This document shows, piece by piece, positions 15,401 to 18,400 of a stretch of 41,592 nt of DNA (position 1 is the stretch's first letter; every line of letters begins with the position of its first letter). The DNA comes from a virus. Taxonomy: Duplodnaviria > Heunggongvirae > Uroviricota > Caudoviricetes. The position numbers were made by a program. The DNA lies in IMG/VR virus record IMGVR_UViG_2874968258_000006, one strand, 5' to 3'.

Positions 15401-18400
15401 TTACCTACAAAGAGCAGCGCGACAAAAACGCAAGAGAACTGAAGCTGGCGAACGCAACCATTACTGACATGCAGCAGCGCCAGCGTGATGCTGATGCACT
15501 CGATGCTAAATACACGAAGGAGTTAGCTGATGCGAAAGCTGAAAATGATGCTCTTCGGCGCAAGCTTGATAATGGTGGTCGGGTGCTCGTCAAAGGAAAA
15601 TGCCCTGTGCCATCCTCAGCCGAAACCTCCAGCGCCTCCGGCATGGGCAATGATGCCACCGTCGAACTCTCTCCAGTTGCTGGACGAAACGTTCTCGGTA
15701 TCCGGGACGGAATCATCAGCGACCAGACAGCATTGAGAATGCTTCAGGAGTACATCAGGATCCAATGCCTTGGGGGGTAGCGGTAATTTTACTCATTATC
15801 CTTCAAATCAGATTCTGTTGTCAGAGGAATGGGGGAAGCTGGATTCGCAAGAGCTTTTTATGGGCAGTTTAGCTAAAAAAAGGCAACACGAAGCTAAAAC
15901 TACCAACATAAAGTGCTGACCAGCTAGCAGCTGAAATCAGACTCACTGTATACACTTTCACTGGATGAAGTTGCAACATTCCTGCCACCAAAGGAGCAAT
16001 ATAACGCAGCACGGCGATAAAGCGCGAAGTGAAAAGTATTGACACAGAGTTATTTTGCAACTGAAGGCGAACCCGTTCTATTGTATTGGAACGGCTTGAT
16101 ATTATACATGCAAGTTGAGGGATATGCCCAATTATTATACCAAGATGGTAATTAACGATAGTACCGCACCATGCGCCACTCATGACCGTGATTCCAGCTT
16201 CCCATGGTGAAAGAGTCGTCTTGCTGACTGTAATTACAGTGGCCATCATAATTGATGCTGGTGGCAATATCGCCGAAATGAGTAAAGTGGATTTTGTGAA
16301 CGCTATTATAAAAAGAAGCCCCCATAGGCGATATGGATGAAGTACAAAATAGTTCATCAAAGCATTTATCCACTCCATCAATGTCTTTCCTTCTGTGAAT
16401 TTTTCTTTGCTATTTAACCGTGATACGACTTAATTTAGGCTTAAACACCTTACATTTACAAGGTACTCCTGTGGGGGGCCCTGCCACGGAGCGTCGCAGG
16501 AGTGAGTGATGAGGAAGAATTAAAGCAACCTATTGTGACAGGCAGCGATAACAGTAAATCACAGGAAGCATAATCATGGCAAAACCGGACTGGGAGGCCA
16601 TCGAATCGGCATACCGGGCCGGAGTCCTTAGCCTCCGTGATATAGGCGAGAAATACGGCGTTACAGAAGGGGCTATCAGGAAGAGGGCCAAAAAGCTTGG
16701 TTGGGCACGCAGTGGCGGTACGCAGGTTTGCAAAAATGGTACGCAAAAAAGGAAAGTGCGTACCAGCAGAAAGCCTGCCATTACTGGCCTTACACAAAAA
16801 AGTACGCAACTAAAAACAGAATCTACACCGGATACGAAACCGATACGCGGAATGCGTACCGATCCCCCGACTAACCCATTCCAACCCGGTAACCAGCAGG
16901 CATTAAAACACGGTGGTTATGCCCGTCGCCTTCTGCTCAAAGATGAGGTGATAGAGGACGCTAAAGCGTTGACGCTCGAGGACGAATTATTTCGCCTTCG
17001 TGCTAACAACCTTGTCGCTGCAGAGAATATTGGTCGGTGGTTGGTGTCGCTGGAAGATGCTAATGGGGACCAGGAAAGGAAGATGCTGATTGAAAATATC
17101 AGCGCCGCCGAGAAAGCAATGATGCGCAATACAGTTCGTATTGAGTCCATCGTTGGCACGCTTGCGACGGTAGGAAAAATATTTGCTGATACAGCCTACC
17201 GCAAGGCCGCCACTGATAAGGTGTCTCTGGAGGCTGATCGTCTTCGCCGTGATGCAGGTATTGATGATGGCAATGGAGAGCGTGACCTCAATGACTTCTA
17301 CTCTGACATCCAAACTGACGCTGAATCCGGCTTTACGTAGTTTCTGGACTATGCGGGCACGTAACAAAGTGCTTTATGGTGGTCGGTCATCGTCAAAATC
17401 ATGGGATGCCGCTGGCATTGCCATATTTCTGTCGAATAAATACACCCTGCGTTTTTGTTGTGCCCGTCAGATCCAGAATAAAATCGAAGAGTCGGTGTAT
17501 ACCCTGCTCAAAATTCAGATAGACAGGTTTGGTCTGCGGCACCGTTTCCGTATTCTGAACAACAAAATCATTAACCGGGTTACTGGCTCGGAATTTGTTT
17601 TTTATGGATTATGGCGCAACATCGAAGAAATTAAGTCACTGGAGGGGATCGATGTGTTGTGGCTGGAAGAAGCCCACGCACTGACGGAATACCAGTGGAA
17701 AATTCTGGAGCCAACGATCCGTAAAGAGGGTTCGGAATGCTGGTTCATATTCAACCCCGGACTTGTTACTGATTTCGTCTGGCGCAACTTCGTTGTTGAT
17801 CCGCCCGAAGGCACTCTCATCCGCAAAATTAACTATGACGAAAATCCGTTTCTGTCTGACACCATGCTTAAGGTTATCGACGCGGCGCGACGCCGTGATC
17901 CGGATGGTTTTAAACATGTGTATGAGGGCGTTCCGGAGTCTGATGATGATGCGGCAATCATCAAACTGTCTTGGATAGAAGCCGCAGTGGATGCGCACAA
18001 AACGTTAAATTTCGAACCCAGTGGAAGAAAGCGTATTGGCTTTGACGTGGCTGACAGTGGTACAGATAAGTGCGCTAACGTTTACCGTCACGGATCCGTT
18101 GTTTTCTGGGCCGACGAATGGAAGGCCAAAGAAGATGAATTACTGAAGAGCTGCCAGCGTACTTATCAGGCGGCGCTGGAGCGTGAAGCAGATATTGTTT
18201 ACGACTCTATCGGTGTTGGTGCGTCTGCCGGTGCTAAATTCTCTGAAATTAACGCTGACCGGAAGAGCGAGAACGCATACGCGCGACGTGTGAATTACCA
18301 GAGGTTTAACGCCGGTGCTGGTGTGCATGAGCCAGATGACGAGTACAACGGCATCCCCAACAAAGACTTTTTCGCAAATCTTAAGGCTCAGGCATGGTGG

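Follow-up and report, generated by a model that had tools for sequence, protein, structure and literature searches.

The virus record IMGVR_UViG_2874968258_000006 of IMG/VR, whose 41,592 nucleotides were analysed as a whole (hereafter, the window), is a decaying lambdoid prophage of Shigella flexneri/enteroinvasive Escherichia coli (EIEC) that carries an ipaH gene. Between its lysis and packaging modules lies a gene for a short protein of the DedA family (hereafter, dedA) in which an invariant lysine takes the place of a glutamate that likely binds protons in better-known relatives, and the two arginines assigned to phosphate binding are kept; proteins of this kind are called here Lys-type. 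The explanation that we favour, with moderate confidence, is that dedA is a moron under PhoP-type regulation encoding a translocator of anionic lipid, probably undecaprenyl phosphate (UndP), which would not be coupled to protons. Membership in the DedA family is in itself an ordinary finding, already labelled correctly in public annotation. As far as literature searches show, the Lys-for-Glu signature, the likely control by PhoP and the carriage by phages are undescribed, and searches on phage or prophage DedA proteins and on the RefSeq accession WP_011069285 returned nothing relevant.

The list of open reading frames (ORFs) of the window gives a minus-strand frame at 15869..16381, of 170 aa when read from a TTG codon. 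The initial annotation had placed there a polytopic membrane protein encoded against the late operon, between the lysis and packaging modules; the frame, its stop codon and its location among neighbours identified by Pfam and RefSeq were as described, but its start had to be moved. Comparison of start codons showed that the ATG at 16376–16378 is the conserved one, as the orthologues all open with MEW, which gives a protein of 169 aa, and that some orthologues have CTG or TTC instead of the TTG before it; thus, the coding sequence (CDS) is best set at 15869–16378. The gene is convergent with Rz/Rz1, with 88 bp between Rz and the dedA stop codon, and divergent from a gene for a helix-turn-helix (HTH) protein and from that of the large terminase subunit, TerL, with 197 bp up to the dedA start. 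Over dedA and its leader (15850–16600), the G+C content was 0.40–0.43, compared with 0.50–0.53 in both flanks. Lambda carries bor, the gene of an outer-membrane lipoprotein, antisense in the slot between lysis and packaging, after Rz/Rz1. Like bor and the morons of lambdoid phages, dedA is a small, independent antisense gene of deviant G+C content in this slot; unlike bor, it encodes an unrelated protein, a polytopic DedA protein of the inner membrane. That the slot is one for accessory genes, as had also been claimed, was supported by a different prophage, of Citrobacter, whose lysis region holds a 78%-identical antisense copy.

The resemblance to DedA/VTT proteins, first described as a weak match, was confirmed by a hidden Markov model (HMM) search and turned out to be anything but weak: Pfam VTT_dom (PF09335) matched with 52.4 bits against a curated gathering threshold of 33.9 (E 9e-14, profile positions 3–121 of 123), and the domain was present in 19 of 19 aligned homologues. 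RefSeq names the product "DedA family protein" (WP_011069285.1) and has it in 6 of 5,426 complete "E. coli" genomes; the identical protein was found on at least 1000 contigs, mostly of S. flexneri, under names that include "VTT domain-containing protein". The NCBIfam equivalogs scored far below their cut-offs (30.7 vs. 236 for PRK10847, the E. coli DedA, and 19.5 vs. 250 for UptA), and PHROG 33251, of unknown function, matched the protein at 4e-7. An AlphaFold2 model built on a 59-sequence alignment (predicted local distance difference test, pLDDT, 87.1; predicted template modelling score, pTM, 0.81) showed two helix-turn-helix hairpins with tips at residues 36–40 and 119–123, two long transmembrane (TM) helices and two amphipathic helices, in agreement with the predicted polytopic topology. 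The core VTT fold, made of re-entrant hairpins interleaved with TM helices, is therefore present in the model. No solved structure was found for comparison with it, and a structure search in BFVD returned weak matches to giant-virus "SNARE associated" proteins only.

When one genome per species was scanned, members of the Lys-type subfamily, a small one within Enterobacterales, were present in 73 genomes. Identity to the window protein was 100% in S. flexneri and one E. coli, 57–78% in Citrobacter youngae, C. meridianamericanus, C. amalonaticus and Kosakonia, 42–53% in about 30 species of Enterobacter plus Lelliottia and Huaxiibacter, 37–43% in about 25 Arsenophonus, including endosymbionts of 0.85–0.93 Mb, and 34–38% in Morganella and Proteus myxofaciens. 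The copies of Kosakonia, C. amalonaticus, Enterobacter and Arsenophonus were located in ordinary chromosomal contexts, and retention in strongly reduced endosymbiont genomes suggests a housekeeping role. When 1.8 billion representatives were searched exhaustively with the profile, only 12 clusters were beyond E 1e-30; after a gap down to about 1e-19 comes a second tier, in which proteins of 530–730 aa are numerous. Of four such long proteins checked (P0040, P0042, P0043 and P0072), three were fusions of an N-terminal DedA part to PAP2, and LssY_C was present in two. These fusions, annotated as "bifunctional DedA family/phosphatase PAP2 family protein", end their DedA part at the same point as the window protein, without the C-terminal TM helix; unlike it, they keep Glu at the position of K29, are 530–730 aa long and are not phage-borne. 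Their presence among the nearest relatives links this branch to lipid-phosphate chemistry.

The residue signature was defined by alignment to E. coli YqjA (BLASTP and hhalign), which paired K29 with Glu39 and A41 with Asp51 in hairpin 1, and R119 and R125 with R130 and R136 in hairpin 2. Both the pattern K..PPAS..R..R..W and the pattern KST..S..PPAS were kept in 72 of the 73 genomes; the K29 position was Lys in 72 of them and R119 and R125 were both Arg in all 73, whereas no column of the subfamily alignment held 50% or more acidic residues. Among the best 150 relatives outside the subfamily, the K29 position was mostly Glu. The alanine at the position of Asp51 was discarded as a special feature, because this position varies among S, A, T and V in ordinary COG0586-like relatives, whereas that of Glu39 does not vary in them. 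Finally, the protein ends at a point that aligns with YqjA residue ~177, so that the C-terminal TM helix is missing.

In COG0586 proteins, according to Todor et al. (PMC10127716), protons are likely bound by the acidic pair (E39/D51) and the phosphate of UndP by the arginine pair, and the same arginines contribute to the binding of C55-P by UptA (PMC11474028). The COG0398 proteins, putative scramblases, are devoid of one or both arginines and of the acidic pair, and those of COG1238 have lost the arginines and kept the acids (PMC10127716). Lys-type proteins have the arginine pair and lack the acidic one, a residue pattern that, in the alignments, fits none of these three described subfamilies. 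An HMM built on the Lys-type subfamily scored 60.6 bits on YabI, 58.4 on DedA, 57.8 on YqjA, 44.3 on YohD and 43.7 on YghB, the COG0586 paralogues of E. coli, against 11.8 and −1.2 on YdjX and YdjZ (COG0398) and 8.4 on YqaA (COG1238). Profile scores thus show that the clade sits with COG0586 (YqjA/YghB/UptA-like), apart from the other two. With the COG0586 proteins (E. coli YqjA, YghB, DedA, YabI and YohD; Bacillus subtilis UptA), which are putative proton-driven UndP flippases, the window protein shares PF09335, the two hairpins and the Arg-x5-Arg tip of hairpin 2; it differs from them in the invariant Lys for Glu39, Ala for Asp51 and the lack of any conserved acidic residue, in its length (~169 aa vs. 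~190–255 aa, without the C-terminal TM helix) and in its identity of only ~24% to YqjA. With COG0398 (YdjX/YdjZ/PetA and the eukaryotic TMEM41B/VMP1), it shares the VTT fold and a hairpin 1 without acidic residues, but it keeps both arginines. With COG1238, the fold is common and the arginine/acid pattern is reversed.

The region upstream of dedA was searched for a PhoP box, taken as (T/G)GTTTA-N5-(T/G)GTTTA in direct orientation, 11–13 nt upstream of a −10 hexamer, which is the spacing described for architecture I/II of PhoP promoters (PMC3335776). All the Enterobacteriaceae copies, phage-borne or not, showed xGTT(G/T)A-N5-xATT(T/G)A followed, after 12–13 nt, by T(T/C)(T/A)AAT, with the hexamer being TTAAAT or TCTAAT in 15 of the 15 copies compared. 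The sequence between these elements was unconserved. The conserved repeat and hexamer make this region a candidate promoter of dedA, and in the window, where 13 nt separate them, their geometry is that of architecture I. Among all copies, the window has the most eroded box; that of the Citrobacter prophage has two mismatches. An Rfam scan of window positions 15000–17500 gave zero matches.

Enterobacter and Lelliottia have, in addition, an exact PhoP box ~20 nt farther upstream of the proximal repeat. In 25 genomes of these genera, the exact sequence KGTTKA-N5-KGTTTA appeared once per 12.5-kb locus and always upstream of dedA; the sole other exact box in the 112 loci compared was found upstream of phoP of C. 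freundii (L111 16451–16467, plus strand), a match that serves as an internal positive control for the pattern. A short mgtE gene preceded by an M-box Mg2+ riboswitch adjoins dedA in 34 of the 73 genomes, divergently in Enterobacter/Lelliottia and co-oriented in several Arsenophonus, and the exact box could act on both genes where they are divergent. The M-box itself was rejected as a control element of dedA: whichever way the two genes are oriented, it is part of the mgtE leader. In a colistin-resistant E. hormaechei strain deleted for mgrB, the dedA gene N5F16_08430 was induced 23.1-fold, mgtE 19.6-fold and the SDR gene 3.1-fold (PMC10434160 supplements). Two features of the E. hormaechei loci examined identify N5F16_08430 as the orthologue: genes arranged as mgtE-dedA-SDR and a Lys-type sequence of 167 aa. 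These mgtE-adjacent Enterobacter proteins resemble that of the phage in being Lys-type (47–53% identity, KST..PPAS..RF..LR) with the same proximal promoter layout, and their genes differ from the phage copy in being chromosomal and divergent from M-box-mgtE, in the extra perfect PhoP box and in their measured induction in the mgrB mutant.

Regarding mobility, blastn aligned ~595 bp of the window (15859–16453) at 82% to positions 8520–7927 of a C. youngae prophage (L002), the one with the 78%-identical antisense copy mentioned above. The homology comprises the ORF, 10 bp on its 3' side and ~75 bp on its 5' side, so the leader travels with the ORF; the 5' limit was also placed at ~16448 with the Citrobacter copies L006 and L031. 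The C. youngae prophage has otherwise a different background, with a holin_8 holin, a GH19 endolysin, a DUF1441 small terminase and a lambda-type GpA terminase. These alignments show that two lambdoid prophages that otherwise differ have a discrete cassette in common and, together with the deviant base composition, this is what is expected of a moron. IMG/VR contained 16 viral contigs with the gene.

Some further features were observed around the other copies. The C. youngae cassette abuts a C-terminal fragment of a second lysozyme, RrrD-like and 57% identical to the lysozyme of the window (L002 7793–8002, minus strand), which is followed by a 161-aa ORF (L002 7294–7776, minus strand). A complete GH19 lysis cassette lies upstream of both, and the arrangement resembles a scar left where lysis modules recombined at the point of insertion. 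In C. meridianamericanus and C. freundii, dedA is located ~175 bp after dinI, on the same strand, at two chromosomal sites. One of the sites lies beside icd, a prophage integration site, and a Mu-like transposase gene and a ner gene adjoin one of the copies; dinI and dedA together may be what is left of a prophage. A C. freundii copy in a record of 82 kb labelled as a plasmid (L111, NZ_CP056259.1) was rejected as plasmid-borne, as this record carries icd, rluE, mnmA, hflD, purB, phoPQ and an ars operon and has the look of a piece of chromosome. The dedA gene of Kosakonia and of a related metagenome-assembled genome (MAG) (L037/L035 6655–7639, plus strand) lies between a gene for an EF-G-like GTPase and one for an L,D-transpeptidase-like protein (YcfS/ErfK), a call made from the N-terminal sequence alone that, if right, adds another envelope-related neighbour. 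The reduced Arsenophonus genomes with a Lys-type DedA measure 0.85–0.94 Mb (L079, L093 and L098–L101).

Under the explanation that we favour, the prophage would have acquired horizontally an accessory cassette consisting of the ORF with its own leader and promoter, placed antisense in the late region. We infer the biochemical function of the Lys-type protein from that of its relatives: the two re-entrant hairpins would meet within the membrane, as in them, and Arg119 and Arg125 would hold an anionic carrier lipid, in all likelihood UndP, by its phosphate head group and aid its crossing of the inner membrane. Since the glutamate for the coupling proton is an invariant Lys and no carboxylate is conserved, translocation would be equilibrative rather than proton-driven. 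Expression would be independent of the late operon, from the conserved activator-type promoter, and as this promoter resembles PhoP architecture I, low Mg2+, cationic peptides or acid would be its likely inducers. By analogy with the Enterobacter orthologue under PhoPQ de-repression, the phage copy may still respond to PhoP, and the lysogen would gain capacity for carrier-lipid recycling during envelope remodelling.

Several points weigh against this proposal. The residues replaced here (E39/D51) have been reported as essential in YqjA and YghB, so that the protein may not flip UndP, and the missing C-terminal TM helix has been implicated in the YqjA dimer and in lipid contacts. Regarding regulation, the PhoP-like box of the window has three mismatches and is insignificant on its own (126 such matches in the window vs. 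87 expected), and simple sigma-70 and terminator scans called neither a promoter nor a terminator for dedA. In addition, a microarray of S. flexneri 301 ΔphoPQ, with 117 regulated genes, included zero locus tags in the range SF06xx–SF07xx, the one expected for dedA on the assumption that it is near ipaH0722, its own tag not having been identified. Regarding carriage by phages, megablast and tblastn found zero close relatives in 50,697 deposited phage genomes, the matches being limited to DedA-like stretches of 24–30% identity, several from records that are short or lack annotation. Finally, the identity among Shigella copies is a consequence of clonal descent and not of selection.

It is conceivable, though somewhat unlikely, that the same fold does a different job, moving an anionic lipid other than UndP (a phospholipid, in the manner of scramblases, or a carrier linked through pyrophosphate) or acting in the homeostasis of Mg2+ or other cations together with MgtE. 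The loss of both acidic residues, as in the putative scramblases of COG0398 (PMC10127716), the adjacency to M-box-mgtE in two orientations and the joint induction of both genes in the mgrB mutant all point in this direction. However, the clade groups by sequence with COG0586 and not with COG0398 or COG1238, it keeps both arginines, which COG0398 has lost, dedA is not under the M-box, and the copies of Citrobacter, Kosakonia, Morganella and phages have no adjoining mgtE.

A bolder version of the proposal, which we regard as rather unlikely, is that the Lys-type proteins form a mechanistically distinct class, moving polyprenyl phosphate or a different anionic lipid independently of protons, with a fixed Lys for the titratable Glu; this class would be a core output of PhoPQ in envelope remodelling, its gene captured by lambdoid phages with its PhoP-responsive promoter and boosting the tolerance of Shigella/EIEC. 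If true, the ipaH prophage would give its host a tolerance to cationic peptides or polymyxin, or an intracellular fitness, induced by host signals. Apart from this, the clade constitutes a natural experiment on the mechanism of DedA proteins, as the phosphate-binding arginines are kept and Glu is changed to Lys in proteins conserved even in endosymbionts of less than 1 Mb. The Enterobacter orthologue is among the most strongly induced membrane-protein genes in the colistin-resistant mgrB mutant. Moreover, this is a rare case of temperate phages moving a DedA gene, on a prophage with the type III effector gene ipaHa, and it raises the question of whether this prophage contributes to envelope-stress tolerance besides effector delivery.

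The integrity of the gene was analysed in relation to a suspicion of decay, raised initially by an overlapping ORF of 73 aa. The homologues are 167–185 aa long, the window protein aligned end to end with 18 orthologues and was full-length compared with the 73 species, and all the subfamily-invariant residues were retained. The ratio of nonsynonymous to synonymous substitutions (dN/dS) was 0.15–0.25 between the window gene and seven orthologues, and ~0.18 on the branch to the window copy, according to our own apportioning of pairwise distances; purifying selection on phage copies was similar to that on chromosomal ones. The 73-aa ORF (16152–16373), located in the +2 frame of dedA, is interrupted by stop codons in four of the seven orthologues, including those of Kosakonia, the related MAG and C. 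amalonaticus, and the window has 194 stop-free stretches of at least its length, so it was rejected as frame noise. With its length kept, these ratios and at least 1000 contigs with the identical protein, the suspicion did not hold, and the comparisons show a gene that is intact and, by its substitution pattern, under purifying selection. That dedA is nonetheless a silent passenger, unexpressed (e.g., silenced by H-NS) or non-functional and surviving because the prophage remnant is young, seems to us quite improbable: the prophage is heavily degraded by the insertion sequences (ISs) IS2, IS1 and IS600, dedA is AT-rich with the most eroded PhoP-like box, and no tag of the expected region appears in the S. 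flexneri 301 list, but the frame is intact with a low branch dN/dS and every invariant residue in place, and dedA was intact in all the related E. coli/EIEC records found, in which ISs had struck neighbouring genes.

A role serving the phage itself, such as a block of superinfection or DNA entry, or the poisoning or modulation of host DedA dimers by an altered subunit without the Glu and the C-terminal helix, appears highly improbable: the slot is a classic one for membrane or exclusion genes expressed by prophages, DedA proteins dimerise via their hairpins (preprint 10.64898/2026.09.20.752871) and the catalytic Glu is absent, but the defence-system models of PADLOC gave zero matches to the protein, the conservation of this protein type on the chromosomes of ~70 species, among them endosymbionts with reduced genomes, speaks for a function of its own in the cell, and phage copies are under a purifying selection similar to that of chromosomal ones.

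The coordinates of the features described here and of the genes around dedA are collected in Table 1.

Table 1. Features of the Lys-type dedA gene, its product and its neighbourhood in the window, and of related loci (locus names precede positions outside the window; residues are those of the 169-aa protein).
Feature	Position	Strand	Basis or remarks
Short Lys-type DedA/VTT CDS, 169 aa	15869..16378	−	Stop TAA 15869–15871; ORF list, Pfam, 18-orthologue alignment, RefSeq name
Hairpin-1 tip motif, K29-S-T-L-L-I-S-A-I-L-P-P-A-S42 (codons)	16253..16294	−	Translation; YqjA alignments
Hairpin-2 tip, R119-F-I-A-V-L-R125 (codons)	16004..16024	−	Equivalent to YqjA Arg130/Arg136 and UptA R112/R118
Predicted hairpin 1	Residues 15–35 + 41–52 (helices)		AlphaFold2
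Predicted TM helix	Residues 58–84		AlphaFold2
Predicted amphipathic segment	Residues 87–109		AlphaFold2
Predicted hairpin 2	Residues 111–118 + 124–134 (helices)		AlphaFold2
Predicted TM helix	Residues 139–168		AlphaFold2
Leader/promoter region, ~75 bp, travelling with the ORF	16379..16453	−	blastn; upstream alignment
−10-like hexamer, TTAAAT	16412..16417	−	Anchored upstream comparison
PhoP-box-like direct repeat, TGTTTA-AGCCT-AAATTA	16431..16447	−	First half perfect, second 3/6; 13 nt upstream of −10-like hexamer
Lysozyme	14816–15313	+	Pfam Phage_lysozyme
Rz	15298–15780	+	Pfam Phage_lysis
Rz1 lipoprotein, embedded in Rz	15530–15736	+	Pfam Rz1
254-aa HTH protein, small-terminase position	16576–17340	+	Pfam; RefSeq annotation of same prophage
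TerL, Terminase_3 large subunit	17291–18694	+	Pfam; RefSeq annotation of same prophage
IpaH NEL E3 ligase with LRR_TTSS, 587 aa	38771–40534	−	Pfam
MxiE-box-like site, GGCGCGTTTTTTTAAAG	40593–40609	−	3 mismatches; ~60 bp upstream of ipaH
Exact PhoP box, dedA-mgtE intergenic	L040–L069, about 5897–5914	+	
Full-length M-box Mg2+ riboswitch before short mgtE	L040/L045/L047 5673–5842	−	108–115 bits
Full-length M-box Mg2+ riboswitch before short mgtE	L072/L074 6792–6962	+	108–115 bits
dinI-dedA loci	L006/L007 7584–8510; L111 8584–9510; L031 5584–6510		

The prophage of the window is the same as the one located beside modC/ybhA in FDAARGOS_943 (L001), with different IS insertions. In the window, an IS2 copy (13463–14793) cuts the last codons of a P21-type holin gene (~13265–13462), ~20 bp before its end, splitting the holin from the lysozyme, and the lysis cassette is therefore probably crippled; in the sister prophage L001, IS2 is found instead in the large terminase gene. 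Copies of IS600 and IS1 disrupt the early and tail regions. The "E. coli" carriers (L001, FDAARGOS_943; L112, O121 201805972) look of Shigella/EIEC type, because of ipaH and of their dense IS1, IS600, IS2 and IS911 content. The counterpart of the IpaH protein in the equivalent EIEC prophage is annotated as IpaHa, which corresponds to ipaH0722, of 587 aa (PMC9046306); with it and dedA, the prophage carries two cargo genes. A search for MxiE boxes, as a sign of co-regulation with ipaH, detected a single box-like site, which precedes ipaH; dedA had none in its vicinity. Finally, a tRNA gene with a CAT anticodon (11397–11470, plus strand), upstream of the lysis genes, is the sole one left of a cluster of four tRNA genes (Ile, Arg, Thr and Gly/Val) present in the sister prophages, and the homology to these stops right after it.

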